The translations under genes and the position numbers were made by a program. Under the pieces are notes generated by a model. It saw nothing but the letters and a program-made list of their open reading frames with translations. It did no database searches and was not told the origin of the DNA. This document shows positions 6,338 to 63,524 of a DNA stretch of 64,000 nt, in pieces (position 1 is the first letter of the stretch; each line of letters begins with the position of its first letter). The stretch is from Nitrospirota bacterium (GTDB taxonomy: Bacteria > Nitrospirota > Thermodesulfovibrionia > Thermodesulfovibrionales > Dissulfurispiraceae), in NCBI GenBank assembly GCA_040758355.1, contig JBFLWF010000006.1, positions 1 through 64,000 of the forward strand, read 5' to 3'.

Positions 6338-6366
6338 ACGAATCGATGCCCTTTATTATAAATCAG

Positions 6367-8451: not shown

Positions 8452-9848
8452 ACCGTTTCCCTCAATGTCCCGAGAACGGCCTTTTTACCCAGCATCTCCA
8501 ATGCCTCTCCTATGGTATAGAAAGAACCGGTAATAAGAATGAGTGAATGAGTGAATGAGTGAATGGGTGAATGGGTGAAGTGATTATTTTTTATCTCCGA
8601 TTCTCTGATTCTCAGATTCTCCGATTCACAGCATTTTTTTGCCATCTCGATAGCATCACTTACAGAATTTGCAACCCTTGAGAAAAAACCCATGTGCAAT
8701 GCGGTCTCTGCAAGTTTTTGAGGTGATGCTGCCCTGCCGTAATCAGGCGCGGTAAATATTATTTCAGAGGCAGCAGGCAGGAGGGGTGACATGATTCCAT
8801 GAATGTCTTTATCGGCCATTATGCCCATTATGAGAATGATCCTGTAATCATTGAGATGTTTTTTTATAAATTCTGATAATGCCTTTGCTGCATCAGGGTT
8901 ATGCGCACCATCGATCATGATAGCGGGATCATTGCTTACTGTTTCGAGCCGTCCATGCCATTCTGTATTGGCAAGGCCCTCTCCAATCAATTTCGAATTT
9001 CGAATTTCGAATTTCGAATTTTGCTTCAATGCAAGGGTTGCCGCCTTTGTTGCCATGCAGGCATTGAATATCTGGTGCTCTCCTGCCAAAGGTGTGTGCA
9101 AATCTGTAATTGTACATGAATCATCGAAGTAGTCAAATGTAATTCCTTCAATGTCTGATAATCTCAGTTCTCCGCTAAAGTCTTTTCCGTATATAAAGAG
9201 AGGAGACGATCTTTCTTTTGCTGCAGCAGCAATCACTTCCCCTGCTTCTTTCTCCTGATGCGCAGAAACAACTGGGATTCCCTTTTTTATAATCCCTGCC
9301 TTTTCGTATGCAATATCTGTTAAGGTCTCTCCCAAAAATTCTTTGTGGTCATAACTTATTTTTGTGATAATAGATACTTCGGGTGTGATTATATTTGTTG
9401 CATCCAGCCTCCCTCCCATGCCTGTCTCTATAACTGCCCAATCCACACTGTTTCTTGAGAAATACAAAAAGGCCATCGCAGTAACAAATTCAAAGAATGT
9501 CGGTTCAGGGATCTGAGATTTTAGATTTGAGATTTTAGATTTGATTTCTTCTGTTAGGCTTACCACGTCCGATTCGGAAATCTGTTCATTATTAATCCTT
9601 ATCCTTTCTGTAAAACTGACAAGATGCGGAGAGGTGAATAAGCCGACCTTGAAGCCGTGGGCCATCAAAACCGATGCGGTCATTGCAGATACAGACCCTT
9701 TCCCGTTTGTGCCGGCAACATGGATAGAGAGGAAGTCTTTGTGGGGATTTCCTAATCGTGATAATATTATCCCGGTCTTTTCGAGGCCGAGTTTGATGCC
9801 GTATTTCTGAAGACCGTATAAATAATTAATTGCTTCAGGATAGCTCAT
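8448..9848 (-). CDS. folC: Bifunctional folylpolyglutamate synthase/dihydrofolate synthase
   Basis: HVAGTNGKGS, FTSPHL, ETGMGGRLDATN, DGAHN, TGSFY motifs. Confidence 0.96.
   Translation of the reverse strand: MSYPEAINYLYGLQKYGIKLGLEKTGIILSRLGNPHKDFLSIHVAGTNGKGSVSAMTASVLMAHGFKVGLFTSPHLVSFTERIRINNEQISESDVVSLTEEIKSKISNLKSQIPEPTFFEFVTAMAFLYFSRNSVDWAVIETGMGGRLDATNIITPEVSIITKISYDHKEFLGETLTDIAYEKAGIIKKGIPVVSAHQEKEAGEVIAAAAKERSSPLFIYGKDFSGELRLSDIEGITFDYFDDSCTITDLHTPLAGEHQIFNACMATKAATLALKQNSKFEIRNSKLIGEGLANTEWHGRLETVSNDPAIMIDGAHNPDAAKALSEFIKKHLNDYRIILIMGIMADKDIHGIMSPLLPAASEIIFTAPDYGRAASPQKLAETALHMGFFSRVANSVSDAIEMAKKCCESENLRIRESEIKNNHFTHSPIHSFTHSLILITGSFYTIGEALEMLGKKAVLGTLRETV
8537..8628. repeat. Octamer repeats (GAGTGAAT)n and (GATTCTCN)n inside folC
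   Basis: Encode ESENLRIRESE and FTHSPIHSFTHS. Confidence 0.8.
8990..9021. repeat. (TTTCGAA)n heptamer repeat inside folC
   Basis: Encodes NSKFEIRNSK. Confidence 0.8.
9512..9546. repeat. (AGATTT[T/G])n heptamer repeat inside folC
   Basis: Encodes KSKISNLKSQI. Confidence 0.75.
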
Positions 9849-30261: not shown

Positions 30262-31406
30262 TGTGTTTTCAGTCTTTTTATCAAGATATCTTTAATTTCG
30301 GCTGGTTTTATGTCTTCAAGGCATCTGCTTATTTTACTTCCATTGCATCCGTCTTTTCCACAGGGTATACAATCCCAATCCCTTTGGATAACAGTATGCA
30401 TTCCGAATGTTTGTATTCCATTCCTGTTGGAGTAGGAGTTTTCAAGATTTGAGATTTGAAATTTGAGATTTGAAATTTTATTGTCCCACGGCCCCCAGTT
30501 GAATGCACCGCTTGGGCCGAACAGGGCAACAACAGGCGTTTCAACTGCCGCGGCAATATGCATGGGTGCAGAGTCGACGCCGAAGAATAAATCGGAAATT
30601 TCCGATAGTGCGCCGAGCTGCTTTATTGTTGTTTTTCCGCAGAGGTCTATTAACCGTAAATCGGGACTGTCCCCGACTAAAGATAGAATTCTCCTCGCCT
30701 TTTCCATTTCTCGCCTGTCAGGGGATGATGTAAATATTACTGTATTTCCACTATCAAGCAACCATCTTGTTATTTCAGCCATATGCTCATCATTCCAGCA
30801 CTTAAAGAGCCATCTTGAAGTTGGGTGAATATGTACAATGCCTGCATTTTTATCCACGCTGTTTTCTTTAAGGATGTTTTTTGCAAATGCCTTGTCCTCT
30901 TCAGGAATATAGAAATCCACGGATAGGTCTTCTGTATTTATTCCAAATCCTTTCACAACATCGAGGTTTTGGAATACCATGTGTCTGTTCCCGTCAGGCT
31001 CCGACAGATGCGTATAGATTGACTGTTTCCCCAAAAAGCCCTTTTTAGATTTCCAGCCAAGTCTATATTTTGCGCCTGATGTAAATGATAATATTGCAGC
31101 CCTATCTCCGCCGGTGAGGTCGACTGTCATATCAAAACCATTTACTCTGATATTTTTGAGAAAGGCCATTTCTTTTGCATATCGCCTTATAGGCGAGAGT
31201 CTTTTTATGCTTCTGTCCATGACGAGTATTTCATCTATCAGCGGGTTCCCCTTCAGGACATCCTCTGTGCCGGAATTTACAAGGGCTGTTATGTGTGCAT
31301 CGGGAAACGTCTCCTTTAATGCCCTGAATACAGGAACAGCAAGAAGCACATCGCCGATATGTCTGAGTTTTATAACAAGTATTTTTTTTATGCCGGCGAA
31401 ATTCAT
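30258..31406 (-). CDS. LPS heptosyltransferase III-like (GT9, RfaQ/WaaQ family)
   Basis: KLRHIGDVLL, HPTSRWLFKCW, VDSAPMHIAAA. Confidence 0.9.
   Translation of the reverse strand: MNFAGIKKILVIKLRHIGDVLLAVPVFRALKETFPDAHITALVNSGTEDVLKGNPLIDEILVMDRSIKRLSPIRRYAKEMAFLKNIRVNGFDMTVDLTGGDRAAILSFTSGAKYRLGWKSKKGFLGKQSIYTHLSEPDGNRHMVFQNLDVVKGFGINTEDLSVDFYIPEEDKAFAKNILKENSVDKNAGIVHIHPTSRWLFKCWNDEHMAEITRWLLDSGNTVIFTSSPDRREMEKARRILSLVGDSPDLRLIDLCGKTTIKQLGALSEISDLFFGVDSAPMHIAAAVETPVVALFGPSGAFNWGPWDNKISNLKFQISNLENSYSNRNGIQTFGMHTVIQRDWDCIPCGKDGCNGSKISRCLEDIKPAEIKDILIKRLKTQ
30445..30478. repeat. Heptamer repeat (A[G/A]ATTTG)n inside the GT9 gene
   Basis: Encodes KISNLKFQISNL. Confidence 0.8.
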
Positions 31407-43134: not shown

Positions 43135-43323
43135 ATGACAAAAATCGATTGTTTTAAATGCAAACACTTCTATATCACATGGGACAAAGGCTTTCCTTAT
43201 GGATGCAAGGCAATGGGATTCAAGACAAAAAACATGCCCTCTGATGTCGTCTATCAATCTTCGGGAATGGAGTGTTTGAAATACGAGGAAAAGGACAAAA
43301 ATCCTAAAAATATCATCAGATAA
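43135..43323 (+). CDS. Small 4-Cys conserved hypothetical protein (family often loosely annotated as uracil-DNA glycosylase)
   Basis: CFKCKHFYITWD...PYGCKAMGFK...SG.EC pattern; too short to be a UDG. Confidence 0.7.
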   Translation: MTKIDCFKCKHFYITWDKGFPYGCKAMGFKTKNMPSDVVYQSSGMECLKYEEKDKNPKNIIR

Positions 43324-43402
43324 ACCGCCTAAGCGAGGGGATACAAAACTTCTTCCTGCTTGTGTCGCCAATGAGGACAGCACAAAACTTAGCAGGTGGC
43401 AG
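43317..43402 (-). pseudogene. Fragment of the DNA-methylase gene joined to the GCGGTTTATCTG end repeat
   Basis: Translates KFCAVLIGDTSRKKFCIP, matching KHCAVLIGDTRRNKFYIP of ORF 46359-46685. Confidence 0.75.
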
Positions 43403-43449
43403 ATTATAAATCTGTGGTATAATTTAATAAAAATGAAGGGTGGATTCCA

Positions 43450-43740
43450 CTGCCAATCATAATTGATGATATAATATGGCTGGATACCATAGTTGAGAAG
43501 ATTGCATGGAAACACGGCGTACTTCCACATGAGGTTGAAGAAGTGTTATCCGGCAATTTCAGGATGTTTAAAAGAGAAAGCGGAAAGGTTGAAGGAGAGG
43601 ATCTTTATAATGCCCTCGGCATAACCGAAGGCGGACGATATCTCTCAATATTTTTTATAAGGAAACTAAATAACAAGGCCCTGATCATAACTGCAAGAGA
43701 TATGAACAAAAGGGAGAAAAGAAGATATGAAAAAAAGTAA
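43450..43740 (+). CDS. BrnT-family toxin (DUF497); probable CTG start
   Basis: IIW...VEKIAWKHGVLPHEVEEV...G.TEGGRYL...IITARDM..RE.RRY; the frame is open back to TAA at 43420. Confidence 0.8.
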   Translation: MPIIIDDIIWLDTIVEKIAWKHGVLPHEVEEVLSGNFRMFKRESGKVEGEDLYNALGITEGGRYLSIFFIRKLNNKALIITARDMNKREKRRYEKK

Positions 43741-43966
43741 ATACAGAGAGATGACAATAGCAGAGGCAAGCGACTATTTCAACGAGCATGATATATTTGA
43801 GTTTGAAGATGTAAAGGAAGTCTCTGATGTCAAATTCAAGTTGCATAAGAAAAAATATATTGGGGTTGACATAGACCTTTTTAAGAAAATTAAAAGTAAA
43901 GCAAAAAAACTCCATAAAAGCGAAGACCTGCTTATAAAAGAATGGCTTATTGAAAAAGTCGGGTAA
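43727..43966 (+). CDS. Cognate antitoxin (BrnA/CopG-like)
   Basis: EASDYFNEHD N-terminus, RHH-like C-terminus, overlaps the toxin stop. Confidence 0.72.
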   Translation: MKKSKYREMTIAEASDYFNEHDIFEFEDVKEVSDVKFKLHKKKYIGVDIDLFKKIKSKAKKLHKSEDLLIKEWLIEKVG

Positions 43967-43979
43967 GACTTTTTCAATA
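43948..43979. terminator. 13-bp perfect hairpin at the end of the antitoxin gene, between convergent TA operons
   Basis: TATTGAAAAAGTC-gggtaa-GACTTTTTCAATA. Confidence 0.55.
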
Positions 43980-44039
43980 CCTTAAAAAATCCTTCCCGAT
44001 TTGTCTTTTGCAGTTTTGTTCTTTCGCCCCTTCCATGCT

Positions 44040-44080
44040 TTTTTGAAACACAAAAATATGCTCATTAAAAGGAGGGGAAA
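44040..44080 (-). pseudogene. Short degenerate fragment of the DNA-methylase C-terminus
   Basis: Reads ...LLLM/EHIFVFQK, matching FLLIMHEHIFVFYK of 46359-46685. Confidence 0.55.
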
Positions 44081-44090
44081 AGCATTAGGA

Positions 44091-44444
44091 TTAGTAAAAC
44101 TCTTGTAAAAATCTCAGTTGATTATCAATTTCTCCATCTTTGGTAACAGCAAGCAATTTGAGAGTTAGCCTTATTAGCTCTGCAATTTTTATTTCAGGAG
44201 ATATGATAATTCCTTTGTGGCGTTTGCCTTCTTCGAGCCATGTCCTATGCAGTTTTGTGAAATCGCCAATATTAAAAGTGAGTATGGCTCTGCCCTGAGA
44301 GGCTGTAAATACAAGTTGTTCTAAATCATTTTTGCCAAGCATGCCCGCATCTCTCGCAGACAAGACATCATAATTGTATTGCTTCAATATTAAGGTGAGG
44401 TCAACAGGGATCATTTCATCGAGATAAAGCTTAATAGCAGCCAT
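44091..44444 (-). CDS. DUF5615-family PIN-like toxin
   Basis: LYLDEM, D..QL, RAILTFNIGDF, H.GII. Confidence 0.85.
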   Translation of the reverse strand: MAAIKLYLDEMIPVDLTLILKQYNYDVLSARDAGMLGKNDLEQLVFTASQGRAILTFNIGDFTKLHRTWLEEGKRHKGIIISPEIKIAELIRLTLKLLAVTKDGEIDNQLRFLQEFY

Positions 44445-44842
44445 CAGTCATATTTTTCAGGAAGGGTTTCCCATGTATATGTCTTTTCTTTTTCATCGTC
44501 CGATAGTTTTTCAAATTCTTCTTCCGTTATAAGCCGGTCAATCCCGTATTCGCCTACAACCAATCGCATATTAGATCTTTTCATAATCGCTCTGAGTGTA
44601 TTTTCCTGAATTTCCTGTTCAATCTCATTCTTATGATCAAAGTAATAGCTGATGGCGTCATGGATCTGCGCAAATGTAAGATGAGGGTATCCCATAAGAA
44701 TATCTTCCGCAGAGTTTCCGCTTTTCACCATAGAAGCGATTAAGCGCACTGTAATCCTTGTGCCGGATATAACAGGCGAACCGCCGCAGATTTCCGGATT
44801 CTTGATAATGTAAGGATGTTCGGTCTTTAATTCTGTAGGCAT
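44444..44842 (-). CDS. DUF433-family antitoxin with C-terminal extension
   Basis: PEICGGSPVISGTRITV...YPHLT.AQIHDAISYY; AGGAGG RBS. Confidence 0.88.
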   Translation of the reverse strand: MPTELKTEHPYIIKNPEICGGSPVISGTRITVRLIASMVKSGNSAEDILMGYPHLTFAQIHDAISYYFDHKNEIEQEIQENTLRAIMKRSNMRLVVGEYGIDRLITEEEFEKLSDDEKEKTYTWETLPEKYD

Positions 44843-44900
44843 TGCGGACTTCCTCCTAAGCAAATAATATCAAAATCGCTCTGAAAGATGCAATTTATAT

Positions 44901-45062
44901 TCACAGATAAACCGCCCTGCCGACTTCTCTGGCAATAAGATTGTCGAATTTATAGTTCTTAAGCCACTGAGATTCCCGTTTCAGATTTTTGAATGCATCC
45001 GCCGCATCTGTGCCTTCGGCGATGCCGATGACAACGGCATCTTCAGTTGAATGGAGTTCAGA
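44901..45062 (-). pseudogene. 53-codon 3' gene fragment ending AVYL* (repeat unit)
   Basis: SELHSTEDAVVIGIAEGTDAADAFKNLKRESQWLKNYKFDNLIAREVGRAVYL*, no start codon; begins right after the hicA stop. Confidence 0.7.
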
Positions 45063-45302
45063 TTACTTTTTGAGAAATTTTTGAAATTCCTCTGGAGACA
45101 ATTCAATATCGCGAAGGATTTTTCTTAGAAGCCCTCGACCAATGGTCTTCCCTTTATGAACGGGGACTGTTGTTTTCCTTCCATCAGGGTGGGTATATCT
45201 GAAGTGACTGCCTTTGGACTTTCTCGTATTCTTGAAGCCAAGCCTTTCAAGAATCCTTATAATTTCTTTGGAAGGCAGTATTGGAAGTCCGCCTTCAGTC
45301 AA
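45063..45302 (-). CDS. hicA: HicA-family toxin
   Basis: LERLGF...KGSH...HPDGRKTTVPVH...GLLRKIL. Confidence 0.9.
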   Translation of the reverse strand: MTEGGLPILPSKEIIRILERLGFKNTRKSKGSHFRYTHPDGRKTTVPVHKGKTIGRGLLRKILRDIELSPEEFQKFLKK

Positions 45303-45532
45303 ACTGCAACCTCAAGGCTTTTAATGCCTATTACTTCAGGATATTTTAAACTGATTTTTTTCTTTCTTTCCTTAAGTTCTTCAATGCACATGGCAATCAC
45401 ATCTTTTATATTTTCTATTGCCTCTTCAAAGGTCTCTCCCTGTGCATAGCAGCCCTGAAGTGCAGGGCATTCAGCAACATAGACGCCATCTTCATCTTGC
45501 TCGATAATTACCTGAAGATTATATTTCTTCAA
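45299..45532 (-). CDS. hicB: HicB-family antitoxin (TTG start)
   Basis: IEQDEDGVYVAECPALQGCYAQGETFEEAIENIKDVI; GGGGAGG RBS. Confidence 0.88.
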   Translation of the reverse strand: MKKYNLQVIIEQDEDGVYVAECPALQGCYAQGETFEEAIENIKDVIAMCIEELKERKKKISLKYPEVIGIKSLEVAV

Positions 45533-45582
45533 TTTTAACACCTCCCCTGTTAAGTCTATGAACATTATACACCTAAAGCCGT

Positions 45583-45693
45583 TTACAGATAAACCGCCCC
45601 GCCTGCTTTTCTGGCAGCAAGGTTGTCGAACCGTTTCAGATTTCTGAACGCATCCTTTGCATTTCTGCCTTCGGCAATGCCGATAATTACGAC
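45583..45693 (-). pseudogene. Second diverged copy of the AVYL* gene-end fragment (27-nt in-frame deletion)
   Basis: VVIIGIAEGRNAKDAFRNLKRFDNLAARKAGGAVYL*. Confidence 0.7.
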
Positions 45694-46238
45694 TTTTTGA
45701 GATGAATAATAGGCTCAAGTTTAGGAAGCAGGAAATATTTTCCAGCCAGTTTGTAGACTTTGCGAATATCGGCCTTCTTTGAAAGCTCTTTAATATCAAT
45801 AATGTCCTGACTGCTTAACGGCAGGAGTTTCAGTAAGATAAGGTATTCAGGGGTAGCGACTTTAATGCTCTTTCCCAGAACATCGGCAACAACCGCATTT
45901 TTTATCGCATCAGCCGCCAAATCAAATCCGCCCGTGCCTATAATATCAACCTGAATCTGACCTGACATGAAAGAAAATTTCTCCTGTATCGTCATTCGCG
46001 GCGTTGCTTTATGGACAGATACCTTTTTCTGCAGTCTTGTCTGGATAAGAGAGATCAGGTCTACCCAGTTTATCTTTTTTGAGATTATAACAACCAGATC
46101 AACATCCCTCGTGGTGCGCGGACGCACCCATGCCGAAAGCGCAAGCCCGCCAATAAGCGCATAATCTTCGACAATGCCTTCATTCTTCAGCTCATCGAAA
46201 AAGGAAATGGTTTTTATAAAGGCTTCGATTATAGACAT
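45687..46238 (-). CDS. Nucleotidyltransferase-superfamily protein (AbiEii/DUF6036-like)
   Basis: YALIGGLAL...PRTTRDVDL, VDI, ATPEYLILLKL...QD..DI. Confidence 0.82.
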   Translation of the reverse strand: MSIIEAFIKTISFFDELKNEGIVEDYALIGGLALSAWVRPRTTRDVDLVVIISKKINWVDLISLIQTRLQKKVSVHKATPRMTIQEKFSFMSGQIQVDIIGTGGFDLAADAIKNAVVADVLGKSIKVATPEYLILLKLLPLSSQDIIDIKELSKKADIRKVYKLAGKYFLLPKLEPIIHLKKS

Positions 46239-46351
46239 TACTTTTTCTTTCCTGCTTTATGAACCGACTTCTTGATTATTAAGGAAAGTTCGAGCAGTTC
46301 GAGGGCGATTTCTATGTTTTTGCCGTTCGGTTTTAAAGGCTTCTTTTTCAT
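46238..46351 (-). CDS. 37-aa basic peptide translationally coupled to the nucleotidyltransferase
   Basis: MKKKPLKPNGKNIEIALELLELSLIIKKSVHKAGKKK*; TAATG overlap with the next gene. Confidence 0.55.
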   Translation of the reverse strand: MKKKPLKPNGKNIEIALELLELSLIIKKSVHKAGKKK

Positions 46352-46358
46352 GCTTGAA

Positions 46359-46685
46359 TTATACACCTAAAGCCGTTTGCAGATAAACCGCAGGGCCTGC
46401 CTCTGTAGGTTTTCGTGGCTTGTAAAAAACAAAAATGTGCTCGTGCATTATGAGGAGAAAGTTGTACTCCTTTGATTTTTTGACCCAAAAACCTGTTGCC
46501 CTGCAATTGTGCTGAACCTTGATGATGTCTTCTTTGAGGACGAATCCAGCCTTTAAAAAGCGCTCCATGACGTTATACGCAAGGGGAATATAGAATTTGT
46601 TCCGCCTCGTATCGCCGATAAGAACAGCGCAATGTTTGCCGGGCTTTAAAACCCTGAAACATTTAGGATAGATTATTTTTGACAA
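46359..46685 (-). pseudogene. C-terminal fragment of an N4/N6 DNA methyltransferase, reading into the AVYL repeat
   Basis: FRVLKPGKHCAVLIGD...GFVLKEDIIKVQHN...HEHIFVF; lacks the SAM-binding and (D/N/S)PPY motifs. Confidence 0.75.
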
Positions 46686-46712
46686 TTCTAATAAAATACA
46701 TCAGGTGAACTC

Positions 46713-47165
46713 ATGAAGAAGATATTAACCCTCGCTGATCAGATCAACAAACGAATTTGGTGGCATTCTCCACCATCAGACAAAAACGCTTACAAAAAAA
46801 GAGGTATGTTCCTGTCTTCGTCATATAAGGAATGCGAATTTTATGGCCGCCCTCTTGATGAACCAATTAGGGTAAAAGTGTCTAAACCGTTAGTAGACAC
46901 TGAACGAAATGTAATTAGATTTTTCTTTGGTAATGATTCTCCACAGATGCTTACCTTAAATGCCTTAATGAATGGCACCTCAAGAAGCCCGGTAAAGGCA
47001 AGATTTAAATTAGATGCGGATTTATTTGAAGCAGCTAAGAAAAACAAATATGATGCCATTGCAATAATCCCAGAAAAGGGTCTTGAAAAAATAAAAAATC
47101 ACAAACTTCCAAGAAGTGTAGAGTTGAACGTAATTGATTTCGAGAATGGAATTGATAAAGTATGA
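46713..47165 (+). CDS. Hypothetical protein, possible ADP-ribosyltransferase fold
   Basis: 150-aa ORF with ATGA overlap to the MTase; WWH...GMFLS....EFYG...KPL...YDAI...E.NV pattern. Confidence 0.6.
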   Translation: MKKILTLADQINKRIWWHSPPSDKNAYKKRGMFLSSSYKECEFYGRPLDEPIRVKVSKPLVDTERNVIRFFFGNDSPQMLTLNALMNGTSRSPVKARFKLDADLFEAAKKNKYDAIAIIPEKGLEKIKNHKLPRSVELNVIDFENGIDKV

Positions 47166-48103
47166 AAGGCACTACACATAAAATTAAAAGCGAAAAAAAG
47201 TGGTCTATAATATACAAGTACACAGAAAGCCCAATTGAATTTTACATTTCAGAAGAAACAGTCACTTATGGCGACAACGGCAAGAAAAAGCCTTTCTCCA
47301 TTTACTACGACAACCCTGCACATTCAGTGAGACTTCTCAAAGGCGATTGCATAGAGATATTGAATCAGGCCAGGGAAAACAGTGTTGATATGATTTTTGC
47401 CGACCCGCCTTATTTTCTTTCTAATGGAGGCATCACTTGCCATGCGGGAAAGATGGTATCTGTTAATAAAGGCAAGTGGGATAAATCCAAAGGTGTGGCA
47501 GAAAATCATAAATTTACTCTCGAATGGCTCAAGGCTTGTCAGCGCGTCCTAAAGCCAAATGGAACAATATGGGTTTCGGGAACAACACATATCATTTACT
47601 CGGTCGGCTTTGCAATGCAGGAGCTTGGATATAAAATCCTTAATGACATTATCTGGTACAAGCGCAACGCTCCACCAAATCTCTCATGCAGATATTTCAC
47701 ACATTCAACAGAGATAGTTTTATGGGCTGCCAAAAATGAAAAAAGCAAACATTACTTTGATTATCATCTTATGAAGAAAATGAATCAAGGTAAGCAGATG
47801 CGTAATGTGTGGGAAATCTCAGCACCGCCAGCAGAGGAAAAGAAGTTCGGAAAACATCCAACTCAAAAACCTGTGGAGCTTTTGAAAAGAATTATCCTTG
47901 CATCTACAAAAGGGGACGATTTAGTGCTTGATCCCTTCTGTGGCAGTTCAACAACCGGCGTTGCAGCGGTCTTATTAAATCGGAAGTATGTAGGGATTGA
48001 TTTGGAGGATGAATATCTTGCTGTCTCTGTAAAGCGATTGAAAGAAGCAATTGTGAAAAAAGAACATAAGCTATTTGAGCATAAAGAGGCAGTAACACGA
48101 TGA
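47162..48103 (+). CDS. N6-adenine DNA methyltransferase, beta class (DpnA/M2.MboI-like)
   Basis: ADPPYFLSNGG...SVNKGKWD, HPTQKP, LDPFCGSSTTG. Confidence 0.92.
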   Translation: MKGTTHKIKSEKKWSIIYKYTESPIEFYISEETVTYGDNGKKKPFSIYYDNPAHSVRLLKGDCIEILNQARENSVDMIFADPPYFLSNGGITCHAGKMVSVNKGKWDKSKGVAENHKFTLEWLKACQRVLKPNGTIWVSGTTHIIYSVGFAMQELGYKILNDIIWYKRNAPPNLSCRYFTHSTEIVLWAAKNEKSKHYFDYHLMKKMNQGKQMRNVWEISAPPAEEKKFGKHPTQKPVELLKRIILASTKGDDLVLDPFCGSSTTGVAAVLLNRKYVGIDLEDEYLAVSVKRLKEAIVKKEHKLFEHKEAVTR

Positions 48104-49026
48104 AATATTCCCCAATATTTAAAAATAAGATAGGTTGTAAGAATGAAAGCGAAGTATTTGCTTATCTGATCAATAATCTTAATGATTCCATCAGATACTG
48201 GGACTATTTTGTGAACTGGAAAAAGGTTCTCGGTAACACGCGAGAGTTGGAGGTAGATTTGAATATTATGAACTACCTGATCGGCAAGGAAGATATTGAG
48301 AAAGAATTTGGTTGTCTTTTAAAAAAGCATCCTCAGATTTTAAGATTAGTTCCTGTGCTTCTTGCATGTAGAGAACATAAGTTTAAAATCCTCACAGATC
48401 TTTCTGAGGGGAATCTCAAGTATGATGATTTTTCATTTGAGGAAAAGAGAAACCTTTCCGATGCTGAAATTTCAAAAGTTGTCCGTTTTGCGCAAAAAAG
48501 TGGCTTGTTAAAAATATTCAAAGACAAAACCGTTAAGAATGTTGTTGATTACACAATTGGGATTGAGGTTGGGCTTGACAGTAATGGGCGTAAAAACCGA
48601 GGCGGTACTGCTATGGAGAAAGTTATCGAATCTTATATTAAAGTAATATGCAAAATGCATGGCTTCAGATATATGAAACAGGCGACTTCTGAAAAGGTGT
48701 CTTCAGAATGGGGACTGAAACTTAGTGTTGACAAATCAAGTAGACGATTCGATTTTGCAGTATACAATGGCAAGAAGCTTTATCTCATAGAAGCCAATTA
48801 CTATGGCGGTGGAGGCTCTAAACTTAAATCTACAGCAGGCGAATATAAAGCTCTATATGATTTTGTCTCTAAGGACGGTCATAAATTTATCTGGATTACC
48901 GATGGCTTGGGATGGAAGACTACCAGTAGGCCTTTAGAGGAAACTTTTAATCATATCGAGTATCTTTTGAATTTAAAAATGCTTACTGAAGGTATCTTAG
49001 ATGGGATTGTTGTAAATAACCTCTAA
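48100..49026 (+). CDS. Type II restriction endonuclease, DpnII/MboI family (GATC)
   Basis: DYFVNWKKV, GIEVGLDSNGRKNRGG, RFDF...IEANYYGGGGSKL, FIWITDG.GW. Confidence 0.92.
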   Translation: MKYSPIFKNKIGCKNESEVFAYLINNLNDSIRYWDYFVNWKKVLGNTRELEVDLNIMNYLIGKEDIEKEFGCLLKKHPQILRLVPVLLACREHKFKILTDLSEGNLKYDDFSFEEKRNLSDAEISKVVRFAQKSGLLKIFKDKTVKNVVDYTIGIEVGLDSNGRKNRGGTAMEKVIESYIKVICKMHGFRYMKQATSEKVSSEWGLKLSVDKSSRRFDFAVYNGKKLYLIEANYYGGGGSKLKSTAGEYKALYDFVSKDGHKFIWITDGLGWKTTSRPLEETFNHIEYLLNLKMLTEGILDGIVVNNL

Positions 49027-49064
49027 AGGGACAACAAAAATTGTACTCTGAATTTTTTAAGTCT

Positions 49065-49316
49065 CTATACTTCTATAGGCCATATAGGAGTAAAAGAATT
49101 GTTCGTCTCTTCAACTGATATTATGTTTTTGACCTCAAATTTACGCGTCCCCTTTTTCATTATGTCATAACAATAAAAGAATTCACTCCCTCTCTCAAAT
49201 CTGTAACTGTATGGTTCGGCTTCTCGAGTTTCAATAGAACCATCTTTCTCCTTAGCTGTTAATAGAATGGTATGAAGATTTTTACCAGCAGATGAAATAA
49301 TATCTTTAATTGTCAT
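49065..49316 (-). CDS. Stand-alone WYL-like domain protein
   Basis: REAEPYSYR...FYCYD...RKF....I.SV...F.P.WPIE pattern; GGAGG RBS. Confidence 0.6.
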   Translation of the reverse strand: MTIKDIISSAGKNLHTILLTAKEKDGSIETREAEPYSYRFERGSEFFYCYDIMKKGTRKFEVKNIISVEETNNSFTPIWPIEV

Positions 49317-49404
49317 TGCATACCCTCCACTGAAAAAATATTCTTAAAATAATAATCATTCTTTTTTGTCTACCCCCTACCAAAATTCAGGGTGCGACCT
49401 ATCT

Positions 49405-51318
49405 TCAGACATCTGGTAATATTCTTTTGCAGAGATCTTCTAATAGAACACATTTCTTGCCCTTCTCCCAGAGATGCTGAAGAGTAGCCACTATAACCAT
49501 TTCGTTTTTCTTTTTATTGGATATATCATTATAGCCGTAAAGCGCTACCATTTCAGCTTGTGCTTTATCCCAGACGTCATGCCCGATCTCATCTCGAACT
49601 GAATCCCTTATATTAGTACCCCACATTACCACATTTGTACCAAAATATCCGCCAGCCGACAACGGATCAACATCAGATGCTGAACATAAGTTGAGAATAC
49701 ATCTATTATCACGGCTATTGTCCTTCTTAACACAGTCCTTTGCATTCTTATCAGAATCACCATCAAAAATTACAAAATAGGGAATAGAGAGTTCCTTAGC
49801 TATAGCAAGTGGTCTGCTCATACTAGTCTTTCCACCGCATATAATGAAATGTCCGCCGCGCCGCTTAAACTCCATCATTCGCCCCAATAGTTCAATGTAT
49901 GTCGATATAAAAGCAACGTCCTCAATACCCTCTACTAATACTGCTAATCCGCTGAAATAAAGTTCGTTTAAAGAAGGTTGCATTATCTGTTGGATCATTG
50001 CCATGCAACTAGACGGCGGTGCGGGACTTTCACCTAAAGCAGCGGCAATGCAATTACTTAGCTTTTCTAATGTCAGATGAGATGCGGTGGAACAATCATC
50101 ATCGTCTTTCCATCGAACTAATCTTATATTTTCTACTCCTTTCCCAGATACAAAATATGGGCTGTGGGTAGTCACAACAACTTGAGCATTTTCCATGTCT
50201 TCAAGAAGTTTTGCCAAGTGCCGGGCCTGCGGAGGATGTTGATAGACTTCAGGCTCCTCAAACCCCAGAAGGAGCATAGGAACTTTTTCCTGTTTACTCT
50301 TTGCCAACATCTGTAATACTGAAACAATAAAAGCACGCTGTAACCCATGCCCCATTCTTCGTATATCACCAAGAAACTGCTTTTCGCCCACCTCTGCCTT
50401 AGCTAACGGCGGATCGACTTTAAATTTGCTTGGATCGAAATTCCAAGATAGTTTTACTCTGGCATCAGGATGAGTCCATTCCTGTAAAAGGCTTTGGAGC
50501 GAAGCCGAAACATCCTCTAATACATGATCTTGCTCACGAAGTATTGCTTCGTACTTTGTTCGTACTTCTTCCTTTAGGGGAATGAGATAGTCTGCAAAAT
50601 TGACACGCGACCTTATAGTTCGCTCAAGCAATTTGCCGAATGCTGTATTCTTAGATTCTTCTTGCTCGCTGGCTGCATCTTTTACAGCAGGAATGTACAC
50701 CCATTGCAGAAAGGGATCTAGTTTCCCTGATCCTTGGAATCCGAAAAATTGATCTTCGCTATCAATAAGTTCACACAATTCTGGGTGCTGGTCTTCATAA
50801 GCTCGGAGTGCTTCAAGCTTATCGTCCTTAGATTTCGGATTTGGAAGGTCTGGATACCTTTCGCGATATCCGTTATAAAGTTGCGTTAACAGGGCGGCAC
50901 TTTGACCTGCTTTATATGCCTCAAAAAATGGCCTAAATTCACCCATTCCCAGTCTTGCACCGAATTGCCTAACTTCTGCGGTTCTTTTTTCTTCATTCCA
51001 GACAGCTTTAGCAGTAAATATAAGTTTTTCGTTTCGTACATAGTGTTGCAAACTCTCTTTAGCTTCGGGTGTCAATTCGCCGAAAGTTGCCCTGATTTCT
51101 ATCGGGTCAGTGGTATTTCGATTGTGGAAATCCTCTTCTATTAATATCTGTACATCGGTTGTTACATCGGTCTTATTTCGGAATAAAACGTTTAAAGCCA
51201 TAAGGACTGTTGATTTGCCAGCGCCGTTTGGGCCTACAAGAGAGGTATACTTGCCAAAGTGGATGGTTGAGTCTTTAAATCCCCTATAGTTCTTAATCTC
51301 TAAAGTTTCAAGCTGCAT
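49405..51318 (-). CDS. OLD-family ATP-dependent nuclease (ABC ATPase + TOPRIM)
   Basis: IKNYRG, Walker A GPNGAGKST, GHGLQR, EEPEVYQHP, TTHSP, TOPRIM VEG.ED and DGD. Confidence 0.9.
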   Translation of the reverse strand: MQLETLEIKNYRGFKDSTIHFGKYTSLVGPNGAGKSTVLMALNVLFRNKTDVTTDVQILIEEDFHNRNTTDPIEIRATFGELTPEAKESLQHYVRNEKLIFTAKAVWNEEKRTAEVRQFGARLGMGEFRPFFEAYKAGQSAALLTQLYNGYRERYPDLPNPKSKDDKLEALRAYEDQHPELCELIDSEDQFFGFQGSGKLDPFLQWVYIPAVKDAASEQEESKNTAFGKLLERTIRSRVNFADYLIPLKEEVRTKYEAILREQDHVLEDVSASLQSLLQEWTHPDARVKLSWNFDPSKFKVDPPLAKAEVGEKQFLGDIRRMGHGLQRAFIVSVLQMLAKSKQEKVPMLLLGFEEPEVYQHPPQARHLAKLLEDMENAQVVVTTHSPYFVSGKGVENIRLVRWKDDDDCSTASHLTLEKLSNCIAAALGESPAPPSSCMAMIQQIMQPSLNELYFSGLAVLVEGIEDVAFISTYIELLGRMMEFKRRGGHFIICGGKTSMSRPLAIAKELSIPYFVIFDGDSDKNAKDCVKKDNSRDNRCILNLCSASDVDPLSAGGYFGTNVVMWGTNIRDSVRDEIGHDVWDKAQAEMVALYGYNDISNKKKNEMVIVATLQHLWEKGKKCVLLEDLCKRILPDV

Positions 51319-51488
51319 TCTTCCTCCTAATACGAGCTTTACTTAATAAGATATAGAGGCAACTTGTATATTATCCATGGGGCGCAGGCTTATTTTTCGA
51401 TCACTTTTTTCTGTCAGCAATCCATTTTTTGACAGTCCTGTCTTATTTCTGCCGCATTATAAATGAGAAAATGGAATTTTTTCAATAT

Positions 51489-51519
51489 AAAAACAGGACA
51501 TTTCTATTTTGGCTTGACA
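51489..51519 (-). mobile_element. Isolated IS terminal inverted repeat (IS481/IS1202-like)
   Basis: Reverse complement TGTCAAGCCAAAATAGAAATGTCCTGTTTTT: TGT terminus plus AAATGTCC motif. No transposase and no second end seen. Confidence 0.5.
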
Positions 51520-51696
51520 TCACAAAAACAAGGCGGAGATTTATCTTTAGGCGAGGCATATTCTTTTGATAGACGCCTTCAAGTGCTACATCCAGATAAC
51601 AAGCACATCCGCCCCAAAATCTGTCAGCAGTTGCAGATTCTGAGGGATAAAGGCATTCTGGAATTCAAAGGACAAGGGAAATATCAATTCAAATAA
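51520..51696 (+). pseudogene. DpnI-type (Dam-replacing) C-terminal winged-helix domain remnant
   Basis: L.EAYSF...L..LHPDNKHIRPKICQQLQILRDKGILEF.G.GKY; truncated at the IS end. Confidence 0.8.
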
Positions 51697-51811
51697 CTTA
51701 GCCCTCGCCCCGCCCCAAAATCCGCTCTATGAGTCGTTGACTCCACTCTATGAGCCGTTGGCTCAACGAGCCATAGGCGAGTCAGAGACCGGCAGCTTTA
51801 AATATAATTTT

Positions 51812-51834
51812 TTGTTATAATTGTGTTATAACAC
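51812..51834 (+). promoter_or_regulatory. Extended -10 (TGTTATAAT) plus perfect palindrome GTGTTATAACAC, likely TA autoregulatory operator
   Basis: Directly upstream of the GGAGG RBS of the AbrB-like antitoxin. Confidence 0.5.
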
Positions 51835-51849
51835 TGCACGGAGGTTTCG

Positions 51850-52098
51850 ATGCACAGGAAATTATGTTCCATAGGCAACAGTCAGGGAATATCAATTCCG
51901 CTGGATATGCTCGAAAGACTCAATCTGTCTGTAGGCTCTGAAGTGGATGTCAAGCTTGACGAAGCTGAATCAAGAATTATCATAGAGCCGGTAATGAAAA
52001 AAAAATATCCCAGGGGCATTGACAGGGAATTTGTCTCTCAGGTTAATGATTTTATCGGAAAGTACAAACCTGCGCTAAAAGAACTCGCAAAGAAGTGA
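51850..52098 (+). CDS. AbrB/MazE-family antitoxin
   Basis: RKL.SIGNSQGISIP...L.LSVGSEV; C-terminal KYKPALKELAK. Confidence 0.87.
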   Translation: MHRKLCSIGNSQGISIPLDMLERLNLSVGSEVDVKLDEAESRIIIEPVMKKKYPRGIDREFVSQVNDFIGKYKPALKELAKK

Positions 52099-52484
52099 AA
52101 TATCTTTTAGTAGAGCAGGTTCTTTTTATTCACAGCAGGCTTATAGATGAGACAGGCGGCTCGCACGGAGTCAGGGATTTGGGGCTTCTTCAGGCTGCGG
52201 TATCGAGGCCGAAGGCGACTTTCGGGGGCAAAGACCTCTATCTTGATATTTTTCACAAGGCAGCGTCCCTCATGGAATCGCTTATAAAAAACCATCCTTT
52301 TATTGACGGCAACAAAAGAACCGCAATAACATCTGTCGGTATTTTTTTGCAAAGAAACGGCTGGTTATTGGAAACTTCACAAAAGGAGCTTGAGAGATTT
52401 GTGATTTCCGTGGCTGCAGGCAATGCCTCTTTTGATGATATTGTTAAGTGGTTTAAGCAGTATTCCTCAAAAGCAAAAATATAG
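52095..52484 (+). CDS. doc: Death-on-curing (Doc/Fic) family toxin
   Basis: GVRD.GLL.AA..RP, HPFIDGNKRTA; GTGA overlap. Confidence 0.9.
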   Translation: MKYLLVEQVLFIHSRLIDETGGSHGVRDLGLLQAAVSRPKATFGGKDLYLDIFHKAASLMESLIKNHPFIDGNKRTAITSVGIFLQRNGWLLETSQKELERFVISVAAGNASFDDIVKWFKQYSSKAKI

Positions 52485-52625
52485 ACACATCCGCCCCCCA
52501 AAATCCGCTCGAAGCGAGTCTCGCGAAGAGTCGCACCGACCAGCAGCTTCAAATCCTCCGAGACAAAGGCATACTGTCCACGACTCGCAGAGGAGTTTAA
52601 ATGGGAAGGGGAGGTACGGGATTTT

Positions 52626-52919
52626 TTAAGGATGGGGTGTAATGGCTATAATAGTTATCTCTTTGTTTCCGGGACCATAATGCCAAAATATTCTATACGC
52701 GGCAGGGGTGGACTGCTCTGCATATGCCTCAAATACTTTTTCTCCTTTTGGACCTTTTAACGAAGTAAATTCATGGGTTTGCAGTCCGGGATGTCTTGGG
52801 TTTTGAGATAAAAATTGAATTGTCTTTTTTACTGCGTTATATCGTTTGGCAAGACCTTTGTCTGTCTTGAGCCGGTTTAACTGTTCTTTAGCCTCATCGG
52901 TCAGGAGTATATCGAACAA
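52626..52919 (-). CDS. RelE/ParE-like toxin (TTG start)
   Basis: NPRHPGLQTHE...FEAY......AYRIFWHYGP...ITIIAITPHP. Confidence 0.7.
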   Translation of the reverse strand: MFDILLTDEAKEQLNRLKTDKGLAKRYNAVKKTIQFLSQNPRHPGLQTHEFTSLKGPKGEKVFEAYAEQSTPAAYRIFWHYGPGNKEITIIAITPHP

Positions 52920-52928
52920 GAGAGATTC

Positions 52929-53177
52929 CTATAATTCATTGAGATTGAGTTTTGAAATCCTGCCTTCAGATGCGTCTTTCAGCCCTTTGTGAACGCTTTT
53001 AAGAGCTTCTTTATTTTTATAAAGCCATCTTTCGGGAAGCGGAATAGTTTCCAAAAGGGTTTCTAACCTGTCAAGCTCGTCCATAGCAATAACAGCAGCC
53101 ACTTTGTGCCCTCTTTTATCTGTTAAATACTGCTTAATTTTAATAAGTTCGCTTTCGCTCTTTAAGGTTGCCGGCAT
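52929..53177 (-). CDS. Putative cognate antitoxin
   Basis: E.WLYKNKEAL.SV.KGL.DA..GR C-terminus; 9 nt upstream of the toxin; AGGAGG RBS. Confidence 0.65.
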   Translation of the reverse strand: MPATLKSESELIKIKQYLTDKRGHKVAAVIAMDELDRLETLLETIPLPERWLYKNKEALKSVHKGLKDASEGRISKLNLNEL

Positions 53178-53286
53178 ATATCCTCCTTTGAAGCCTGTTG
53201 CTAAAATAAATTATAACATAATAACAAACACATCCACCCCCAAAATCCGCCGGCAGCGGTTTTTAATATGCCAATGGTCGTGAGAA

Positions 53287-53478
53287 CTACACCTGTGCGG
53301 TTTTTAATTCTCCTGAATGGGGACGTTTTCTGTTCGGACAGTATATCACGGGGCAGGACTCGCAGCTTTCAGCAGAGTCTATCTCAAAGCCGAAGGGGAT
53401 CAATTCTCCGCAGTCGCATTGCCAGCCTTCTGGGGTATGTTTTGATAATGCATTATCACAAAAAGGACATTTAAGCAT
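53287..53478 (-). CDS. Small Cys-rich hypothetical protein (possible zinc ribbon)
   Basis: CPFC, CDCG, CESC...YC in 63 aa. Confidence 0.55.
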   Translation of the reverse strand: MLKCPFCDNALSKHTPEGWQCDCGELIPFGFEIDSAESCESCPVIYCPNRKRPHSGELKTAQV

Positions 53479-53554
53479 ATGTCTAATTTAAGTATAGAAC
53501 CGGGGAAAATATTTTTTTATGACGTGTATCATATGGATGCACACCCCTGTGTAT

Positions 53555-54370
53555 TTATCCCTTCCTTGAATCCTCAAGGTTACGAACAATCTCTGCGCCT
53601 ATGAGGAATATGCAGGATGAATAGAAGACCCACAGGAGGAATATCACAAAGGCCGAGAGGGGTCCGTATATGGTTCCTAATTTCGCAACCTTTACTACAT
53701 AGAGGGTGAAGGTGTGCTTTGCTGCTTCAAGAAGGATTGCTGTAAATAACGCCCCTGATAATGCGCAGCTGAGTCTTATCCTTTTTTTCGGGAGGAAGAT
53801 GTAGAGCGTGGCTGCGGTCAGGAATACCAGTATCAATGGCACGACAAATTTTATTACAAAGCCTGTTATCTTCCCAATCTTTACATCCGGGAAAAATTCC
53901 TGAAGTGTCTTAAGCATCGAGATTGCAGCTGTTGCGCCAAAGGAGGCAAGGATAAAGGCAATTATCAGGGTGATGATGAATAGAGAGAGGACAATGGAGA
54001 TTATAAAATGTCTCTTAGCCTTTGTCTTGAATATCACATTTGTTGCTGTTTCAAGTGATGAAAAAAGCTGGTAGGACAATACGGCATAGAGGATTACTGT
54101 AAACTGCCCTATTCCTTTGTAGGATATTATCTTTTTCAGTTCGTTGGTTATCTCGTGTGTGATCTTTGGAAAGAAACCCACGAGTTTTGCTGAAAAGAAT
54201 CTGAGCAGTTCTTCATTGCCGCCGAGGAAATGTCCGAATATTGTCACGAGGAGGAGGCAGAAGGGGACGATTGCCATCATGGTGAAGTATGATATTGAGC
54301 CTGCAAGCATGAGCCCGCCGTCCCTGAAGAAGTCCACGAAGCTTCTGAGTATTGCCTTTACATATCGCAT
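53555..54370 (-). CDS. YihY/virulence factor BrkB family membrane protein
   Basis: LAGSISYF, multiple TM helices, YGPLSAFVIFLLWVFYS...LIGAE. Confidence 0.9.
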   Translation of the reverse strand: MRYVKAILRSFVDFFRDGGLMLAGSISYFTMMAIVPFCLLLVTIFGHFLGGNEELLRFFSAKLVGFFPKITHEITNELKKIISYKGIGQFTVILYAVLSYQLFSSLETATNVIFKTKAKRHFIISIVLSLFIITLIIAFILASFGATAAISMLKTLQEFFPDVKIGKITGFVIKFVVPLILVFLTAATLYIFLPKKRIRLSCALSGALFTAILLEAAKHTFTLYVVKVAKLGTIYGPLSAFVIFLLWVFYSSCIFLIGAEIVRNLEDSRKG

Positions 54371-54430
54371 TTATGCTCAATTATAACAGAATCGATTGCT
54401 GGCAGTGCGTAAGCATGGTATTATTTTAGT

Positions 54431-54943
54431 ATGAAAAGGATTTTATATATATCGGCTGTTTTATGCATTGTCTTATTCTCTTGCGCCACAGGCAATTATC
54501 TGAAGACAGAAGGTGCAAAGGATGCGGATATCAAAGGTTCTTTCACCCTCATACTTTACGGCAGCAGGCATTTAAATGATATTGAGACCATAGCAATTCT
54601 TGACATTGAAGGAGACAGCTACAGCTTTGAGCCGTATGCACCTGAATTTGACTATAAGATAAAAAAGGGTATTCCTGCTAAAGAGGCACTGGAGGAAGCA
54701 GAGAGGTTTGTAAGCTGGCACAGCTCATTCCATTACTCACAATTAAGCAGGATTCTTGATGATAAAGGCAATGTCATCGGGTATGAGATTAGACCGCTTT
54801 ACCGGCCTCTTGCCTTTGGTGCTTCGGATGTCCTCGATGTCGATTACAGGATTAAAGACAGCAGGGTAATCGTGAGAATAAGGCTCAAGCCGCAGATCGA
54901 AAGGATGCTCTTTGACGGAGACAAATCAAAAGAGGATAATTAG
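54431..54943 (+). CDS. Hypothetical lipoprotein
   Basis: Signal peptide with LFSC lipobox. Confidence 0.65.
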   Translation: MKRILYISAVLCIVLFSCATGNYLKTEGAKDADIKGSFTLILYGSRHLNDIETIAILDIEGDSYSFEPYAPEFDYKIKKGIPAKEALEEAERFVSWHSSFHYSQLSRILDDKGNVIGYEIRPLYRPLAFGASDVLDVDYRIKDSRVIVRIRLKPQIERMLFDGDKSKEDN

Positions 54944-63425: not shown

Positions 63426-63521
63426 AAATGAGTATATGGGTAAATGTGTATCTGATGTCAGAGCATTTTTAAAAATCTTTTACACCCATTTACTCATAAA
63501 CCCATTCACTCATTTACTAAT
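63426..63521. repeat. Inverted octamer repeat block (ATGRGTAA-like / TTACTCAT-like)
   Basis: aaatgagtatatgggtaaatgtgta...tacacccatttactcataaacccattcactcattt. Confidence 0.7.
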
Positions 63522-63524
63522 ACA

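Follow-up and report, generated by a model that had tools for sequence, protein, structure and literature searches.

We describe an array of toxin–antitoxin (TA) modules joined by displaced 3′ ends of dpnI, a restriction enzyme gene, in contig JBFLWF010000006.1 of a Nitrospirota bacterium, of which a 64-kb stretch (positions 1 to 64,000, hereafter the window) was analysed together with its source genome, G000 (2.77 Mb, 99% complete). Between 51536 and 53257 the window carries four copies of the dpnI 3′ end, all on the plus strand, and the array which they form is the right arm of an island extending over 43331-53549. The reading that we favour, to which we give a probability of about one half, is that of an integrase-free cassette array to which modules would be added by anchored, out-of-register homologous recombination, with a short core within the dpnI end providing the second crossover, and in which units would be trimmed by deletion and held in place by TA addiction.

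The core 12-mer CCCCAAAATCYG occurs four times in the window, each time on the plus strand and within 51612-53249, where 0.04 occurrences are expected and none of 100 shuffled sequences reaches four; the exact sequence CCCCAAAATCCG is found three times in the 2.77-Mb genome, every time within the array. An initial annotation, made from the letters alone, had recognized here four copies of the DpnI winged-helix (wH) segment. The four cores are indeed present, but only copies 1 and 3 keep a wH tail, copies 2 and 4 (the latter about 30 nt) giving no match to the wH profile, so that the array is better described as a short core repeated four times and followed in two cases by a wH tail. Copy 1, correctly taken at the outset for a wH remnant with its stop, lies in an open reading frame (ORF; 51463-51696) that matches Pfam DpnI_C (E 4.6e-19) and aligns to positions 20-69 of the PF17726 profile. 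Searched with a full-length dpnI hidden Markov model (HMM), it corresponds to the 3′-terminal 160 nt of a dpnI gene, with homology from about 51536, and its nominal ATG sits in unrelated DNA that includes a 32-mer (51488-51519) which we take to be the end of an insertion sequence (IS), no transposase having been found for it. Its peptide reads HIRPKICQQ, not HIRPKIRQQ as originally given. Copy 2 follows copy 1 as an empty unit of 101 nt. Copy 3, whose match to the wH profile (E 6.8e-4) is below cut-off, begins 1 nt past the doc stop and ends in a TAA (52627-52629) overlapping the stop of the convergent toxin gene, as first described; the continuous reading proposed between these points does not exist, being broken by a run of six C and two inserts. 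Both DpnI_C matches and the full-length HMM agree with the proposed origin of the fragments in the 3′ end of the DpnI wH domain.

Copies 1 and 3 encode an identical QQLQILRDKGIL; over 12 codons of the same meaning they differ at nine nucleotide positions with no amino-acid change, which bears out an early remark on synonymous sites. The ratio of non-synonymous to synonymous differences (pN/pS) is 0.18 in pairwise comparisons among 43 uninterrupted tails and 0.13 among native dpnI genes. The tails therefore descend from distinct dpnI alleles that were formerly coding, rather than from one allele duplicated in place. The N-terminal catalytic domain of DpnI (PF06044) gave no match over the cut-off in G000, and is intact in relatives such as L041/L066, L063, L074 and L080.

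The displaced copies have a sharp 5′ boundary. Aligned to the full-length 765-nt dpnI HMM at 50 loci, they start at positions 641-716, with copy 1 at 605; earlier starts belong to whole, contig-cut or divergent wH-fusion genes and to one chance-level match. A tail-only HMM, which is independent of the core, retrieved 78 non-native tails with a core (at most two errors) upstream of 58, a degenerate core upstream of 12 and none upstream of eight, compared with 28 of 1500 background windows, and the boundary is therefore not produced by the search method. When clusters of upstream arms are taken as independent junctions, 88 fragments give 58 clusters, 44 of which start no more than 22 nt before the end of AAAATCCG, seven at 23-30 nt and seven beyond 30 nt, reaching 32-87 nt upstream. 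Several cargo ends appear in two forms, one with the arm long and one with it cut back to the core (L074/L066, L191/L099), which is what erosion toward a wall predicts. Seven ‘junk’ sites, three genuine degenerate cores lost among them, had been dropped before counting, as had L069, L071, L097, L170, L151 and L181 (chance matches or misclassified native genes) and duplicate loci.

This boundary falls at a sequence that ties for the most GC-rich 8-mer of dpnI and is its most C-rich one. Each joint might thus be a fresh product of homology-facilitated illegitimate recombination, with a long anchor and 3-10 nt of GC-rich microhomology and with the core as a hot spot only, a model proposed for Vibrio immunity arrays of type VI secretion (T6SS) in the available part of PMC5361080 and one that the microhomology deletion of strain X2, described below, would fit. 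However, an equally GC-rich 8-mer at dpnI position 402 is never a start, and the same part of that source puts the frequency of illegitimate recombination orders of magnitude below that of homologous recombination, although differences between close strains are repeated. The cassettes that recur moreover keep one arm across families, so most moves would reuse an old joint, and we consider this explanation improbable.

What is joined at the core is seen from a RelE-like cassette found at five loci and in two composite intervals, all of which have the pre-core arm and the distal tail in common, while the sequences that follow the core are all different. The unit of the array is core–tail–cargo: pre-core sequence travels with the upstream cargo, and post-core sequence does not. 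Across the order, DpnI_C is matched in 43 of 317 genomes, displaced dpnI fragments occur in 26 genomes and about 20 have at least two copies at one locus; the core pattern itself is present in 21 of the 317 (28 matches, mostly one locus per genome; five for the reversed control). The 52 inter-core intervals measure 92-1621 nt. Among 43 cargo proteins scanned in or beside them, 32 match TA-type families (HicAB, PIN, HEPN-MNT, ParE, HigBA-like, DUF433/5615 and AbiEii), three NERD and one AIPR, with seven giving no match. Cargo orientation is mixed in these arrays, as in the window, where all cores face one way and the AbrB/MazE-Doc (+) and RelB-like/RelE-like (-) pairs face both, just as the annotation had noted. 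Identical cassettes recur across families in different orders, and the same-genus genomes G001, G002 and G004 have other cassettes at the same brkB-flanked site.

The arrays are headed by an intact dpnI (L041, L063, L074, L080, L144, L154, L160, L191) or by other restriction–modification (R-M) genes in its place, the upstream R-M cores being intact dpnI, DpnII-type, MutH-like, AccI/Eco57I-like or DUF6996/6997. Where an intact dpnI of this allele clade has at least 1.2 kb of sequence downstream, a second copy follows in seven of 12 cases, a count from which L066, an array locus with an intact dpnI, was set aside as duplicate and in which two core-only downstream copies were missed; outside the clade the same score is passed by three of 29 intact dpnI genes, a single one of them being a Nitrospirota array and the remaining two scoring close to chance. 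Between gyrB and gyrA there is a solitary dpnI tail that has a core but no cargo at L051 (G041:C19:21600-21685), and a record titled as an archaeal metagenome-assembled genome carries the dpnI–methyltransferase pair of this clade (L064; transfer or binning error).

Near-identical strains, represented by Logan contigs that indicate presence only and of which X1 may have a connection with the source sample, differ from G000 at the same points. In X1 one contig is 99.5% identical over 51753-54500 and others cover the left arm, and the stretch from 48016 to 51709 is exchanged for 3205 other nucleotides, the sequence diverging within the methyltransferase gene and rejoining at the core of copy 2. 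X1 shows 14 differences over 2747 nt, and five of these are located within the left halves of the copy 3 and copy 4 cores (about 20 nt) with flanks unchanged, a patch exchange of the kind left by variable crossovers and not by a fixed cut-and-restore. X2 has other DNA ahead of 51594 and has lost 393 nt, from the end of the copy 3 core into the RelE-like toxin gene, the antitoxin being kept; the deletion ends in a pseudo-core of that gene (52896-52907), the best match to the right half of the core within the cassette (9/12; next 7). In X14 and X18 a different repeat immediately precedes the downstream gene. With exchange breakpoints at the CCCCAAAATC core in these strains and in relatives, the suggestions that cargo is exchanged between such fragments and that a short motif marks the breakpoints are both upheld. 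The inserts, the 5′ boundary, the exchanged R-M core and the setting of the array in an island had escaped the annotation. Joints in X3, X4 and X14 that go back from 53236-53245 to about 52495-52500 were rejected as evidence of circles, because the contigs run on into a different, degenerate repeat, and the RNA run X20 was rejected as evidence of expression, covering three short pieces only.

The cores themselves are hypervariable. Substitutions are frequent among 64 cores, the C-run has a length other than four in 29, and roughly one fragment in three has the native CACA before the core shifted toward CCCC, with a C at -1 in 23 of the 64; such variants are found in L042, L048, L088, L099, L171, L188 and others, and the same joint occurs in both forms. 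Neither a C-run variant nor the CACA-to-CCCC change is found among 80 native dpnI genes. The latter change resembles what we take to be the context of Illumina T-to-G errors, as might be expected of a sequencing or assembly artefact or of chance repeats. An explanation of that sort is hardly credible, and for the array itself it is refuted: a single contig from an independent run covers 51753-54500 with the identity given above, arrays are found in many genomes, and the native genes lack the C-run variant.

According to the reading that we favour, an incoming dpnI–tail-B–core would pair with a recipient dpnI–tail-A in the gene body (or in the methyltransferase gene, or in the downstream flank) for a first crossover, and the second core of the donor would pair with the first core of the recipient for a second. 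The product would be dpnI–tail-B–core–tail-A, with dpnI restored and the older tail pushed back; units keeping the core would stay mobile and deletions would trim the rest up to it. Since the core is the most conserved part of dpnI alleles that are near-saturated at synonymous sites, only core-keeping units could enter foreign arrays. The incoming DNA may arrive by transformation, and the ComEC, DprA and ComM genes are present in G000, although these are common genes and favour homologous recombination only weakly. The richness in TA cargo may follow from addiction opposing excision between repeats; resistance to loss of this kind has been shown for integron TA cassettes, according to the available part of PMC13108822.

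Several points weigh against such a mechanism, the argument for which is drawn from sequence comparison, no recombination event having been seen directly. The core ranks as the most conserved 21-nt window among 18 dpnI genes of the clade (0.87), and this ranking is inflated, the genes having been gathered with patterns covering that region. RecA requires a minimum of about 25-30 nt, for which a 20-nt core is short. No fewer than 44 independent junctions come together at a single point, in 25 of the 88 fragments various micro-palindromes break the sequence at +1 to +3 past AAAATCCG, and the X2 deletion begins precisely there, all of which point to a defined break. The first joining of new cargo to a core is not explained by homology. 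Finally, dpnI genes of other phyla with an identical core (L062, L068, L073, L182) show no clear array, and a host factor may therefore be needed.

A defined break would be provided by a trans-acting, site-directed enzyme, either a nickase of the HUH type like the tyrosine transposases associated with repetitive extragenic palindromes (REP; RAYT) or a machinery that writes micro-palindromes, cutting at AAAATCCGC^CAG and using the 16-20 nt upstream for its binding arm; core–tail–cargo circles would be excised and inserted, and new cassettes made at pseudo-sites. Such an enzyme, the main rival to homologous recombination, which we put forward tentatively and regard as the less likely of the two, would explain the fixed 5′ wall, the interruption of fragments at the cut base and the run of the X2 deletion from that base to a 9/12 pseudo-site. 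The inserts are nested, 16-65-nt, GAGTC-containing micro-palindromes at two or three fixed points of the tail and, at the loci examined, almost nowhere else; in G000 they are confined to the array and are unlike the flanks of its Y1 transposase genes, and two further AAATCCGC sites (C14, C39) carry short palindromes. The core of the second array, on the left side of the island, has A[TA]CCGCC in common with the dpnI core on the equivalent strand, a likeness noticed after the fact. Two Y1 genes of G000 are closest to RAYT, both below the NCBIfam cut-off and one of them broken, and E. coli TnpA-REP cleaves and recombines bacterial interspersed mosaic elements (BIMEs) in vitro, as stated in the available part of PMC3333891. 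A dedicated nickase is, however, difficult to reconcile with the variable C-run and frequent core substitutions, with the patch differences of X1 and with the seven arm clusters that extend far upstream. Copies 1 and 3 fold no better than shuffled sequences (z -0.1 to -0.9), leaving no conserved hairpin, a weak hairpin in the tail not being conserved among alleles as judged by eye, and the sole array-adjacent Y1 gene (L160) has GTAG-type repeats of its own, unlike the core. The two mechanisms can be combined, a nick provoking homology-based repair. Intergenic heptamer/octamer tandem repeats occur in the window at 5543-9546, 30447-30479 and 63483-63524, and similar junk invades degenerate tails in relatives.

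No recombinase was found locally. Among 138 neighbouring proteins from 59 loci (of 145 ORFs of at least 170 aa, the seven longer than 560 aa being left out) there was no tyrosine or serine recombinase and no intI, and the Y1 gene of L160 was the one transposase match of its kind. Elsewhere G000 encodes XerC/D and two phage-type integrases, and on contig C3 (119500-126500; L223) a true integron with IntI (TIGR02249 above cut-off) and attC-like cassettes upstream. With IntI and XerC/D present, and with a geometry that fits the familiar tandem integration at gene 3′ ends, the copies could be attachment-site remnants of decayed integrative elements or secondary sites of an integron integrase or of XerCD, but the units of 92-1621 nt contain no integrase remnant that we could find, and the core has no attC-like fold and is unlike a dif-like site; this origin is very improbable. 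IntI is encoded in 15 of 26 fragment-bearing and six of 20 comparison genomes; a dependence on it is unsupported, as it was not found in the other 11 of the 26, three of them 99-100% complete, which in drafts is not proof of absence. Identity of the core with attC was rejected on the lack of an attC-like fold and of any Rfam match, R boxes being checked by eye only. The array holds no dif-like site with XerC and XerD arms and a 6-nt spacer, and dif/pdif identity was rejected also; what is presumably the single dif-like site of G000, at C3:21216, is unlike the core. The idea of a Chi site was discarded, GGCGG being under-represented (z -10) with a strand skew no greater than that of other G-rich words, and so was that of a dispersed REP, since the core pattern mostly occupies one locus per genome and the inserts are restricted to tails. 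Nor do the inserts in G000 have the distribution of palindromes scattered in many copies around a Y1 gene, as in REP/RAYT systems, and PDB sequence, PADLOC and Rfam searches returned nothing for the repeats of the array. Other elements of G000 include a small one encoding a replication protein of the II/X family together with an integrase of phage type (C14:13000-19000; L224), and repeats of about 215 nt with inverted ends, often 1-2 kb apart (C1:151876, 153992, 155158, 206399, 208455, 210616; C5:84715, 85673; C22; C26), possibly a miniature inverted-repeat transposable element or another cassette system.

The features of the island are collected in Table 1. In G003, a complete genome of the same genus, the island flanks are only 6 nt apart. 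Cargo of the left array comprises AbiEii-like, HicAB, DUF433/DUF5615 and BrnT/CopG genes, and left-type arrays of AF_1447-like tails are present in relatives too. In the right arm, the order of an antitoxin followed by a Fic/Doc toxin in one operon, with matches to PF04014, PF02661 and TIGR01550, predicts AbrB-Doc to be a type II TA pair. The RelE-like toxin has no Pfam, NCBIfam, PADLOC or PDB-sequence match. In the available part of PMC3812788, DpnI and DpnII are complementary systems of pneumococcus. The DpnII-type core, which by its Pfam matches would methylate GATC, would require the loss of the DpnI catalytic domain, and this may be why G000 lacks it. Genes fusing a PLD domain to a winged helix occupy the island core in L042, L088, L107 and L053 and are not the source of the tails. 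In G000 as a whole CTAG is almost absent (0.025 of expected), GATC is halved (0.48), and CCWGG and GGWCC are strongly avoided.

Table 1. Features of the island and of its right arm, in window coordinates.
Feature	Position	Strand	Remarks
Whole island (10.2 kb)	43331..53549		Absent from the complete same-genus genome G003
Left (mirror) array	43317..46400	-	A small AF_1447-like gene, ending GCGGTTTATCTG, present as four tails
Replaceable island core	47162..51318		DpnII-type methyltransferase and restriction endonuclease (+); WYL-like gene and OLD nuclease (-)
IS-end-like 32-mer	51488..51519	+	Abuts dpnI remnant upstream; multi-copy in relatives, often at contig ends; single in G000; presumed assignment
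Copy 1	51536..51696	+	dpnI 3′ remnant: second part of wH domain and stop; core 51604-51623
Copy 2	51710..51796	+	Core 51710-51724, separated by a nested palindromic insert (51725-51788, 64 nt) from 8 nt of tail; breakpoint in X1
Promoter/operator-like TGTTATAAT...GTTATAAC of AbrB-Doc module	51810..51835	+	Homology to free-standing module copies starts here; putative function
AbrB/MazE-type antitoxin	51850..52098	+	PF04014
Doc/Fic toxin	52095..52484	+	PF02661; TIGR01550 above cut-off
Copy 3	52485..52629	+	Core 52486-52507 (6-C run); 32-nt palindromic insert 52508-52539; QQLQILRDKGIL; 17-nt insert near 52576-52592; tail to TAA
RelE/ParE-like toxin	52626..52919	-	ESM Atlas neighbours named RelE/ParE
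RelB-like antitoxin	52929..53177	-	E 0.0011, below cut-off
Extended -10-like TGTTATAAT of reverse TA operon	53210..53218	-	17 nt from copy 4 core; putative function
Copy 4	53221..53257	+	Core only (53229-53249) and 8 nt; four changes in the 99.5%-identical strain X1
Micro-palindromes	51725-51788, 52508-52539, 52576-52592		Window; also relatives L044, L047, L050, L079, L080, L083, L156

How TA pairs travel and accumulate within defence islands when they have no recombinases of their own is an open question, and the present locus, where a 20-nt joint is defined, junctions have arisen independently dozens of times, cassettes recur and exchanges are seen between strains, makes the route directly testable in laboratory strains. 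It also links the switching between DpnI and DpnII-type cores to TA accretion on both sides of the island. If homologous recombination is at work, a conserved gene end alone can serve as an integron-like platform in bacteria; if a nickase is, this is a new cassette system. On the latter supposition, and with the same reserve, the array might belong to an integron-like gene-capture system of Nitrospirota, in which a trans-acting enzyme would cut AAAATCCGC^CAG in the dpnI end (and a similar motif in a second gene end) and build a two-armed TA library around an exchangeable R-M core. No published description of dpnI-tail arrays or of Nitrospirota TA arrays was found in a literature search that was thin on subscription papers.

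Closest in operation are the sequential-displacement arrays formed by T6SS effector–immunity genes in V. cholerae and by orphan modules of Rhs and contact-dependent inhibition (CDI) systems, in which, as here, new modules stand behind a conserved gene with older ones pushed back, and for which the available part of PMC5361080 names no integrase and proposes both homologous recombination and anchored recombination. Here, in contrast, the host gene is that of a restriction enzyme, a second array flanks the island's opposite side, every unit has a fixed short core and a gene tail as its bounds, and the cargo consists of stand-alone, self-promoted TA pairs in both orientations with NERD and AIPR proteins, instead of toxin domains of the host protein with their immunity. 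Sedentary chromosomal integrons with TA cassettes, as presented in the available parts of PMC13108822 and PMC12614218, likewise have ordered small cassettes, co-oriented repeats and reshuffling between strains, and are rich in promoter-bearing TA pairs that oppose excision. The dpnI array differs in that no adjacent intI and no attC hairpin were found, the repeat is the tail of a protein-coding gene, and the real integron of G000 lies elsewhere, on contig C3, with its own cassettes. The pneumococcal DpnI/DpnII system resembles it in that, in the available part of PMC3812788, DpnI and DpnII-type cores alternate at one locus. At the present locus AccI/Eco57I-like, MutH-like, DUF6996/6997 and PLD-wH cores alternate as well, and dpnI tails stay behind as joints. 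Tandem integrative elements at the 3′ ends of tRNA or protein genes are units which, on entry, rebuild the end of the gene and push its old tail aside. The dpnI array is like them in its displaced 3′ fragments, sharp 5′ boundary and restored gene, and unlike them in its units of about 0.6-1.6 kb with no integrase found and no element body. In the pdif modules of Acinetobacter, small TA modules lie between short recombination sites, whereas here the core is not dif-like and all copies point in one direction. The array thus lacks the defining marks of integrons, pdif modules, integrative elements and REP/RAYT systems; it looks like an integron and works like a sequential-displacement array.

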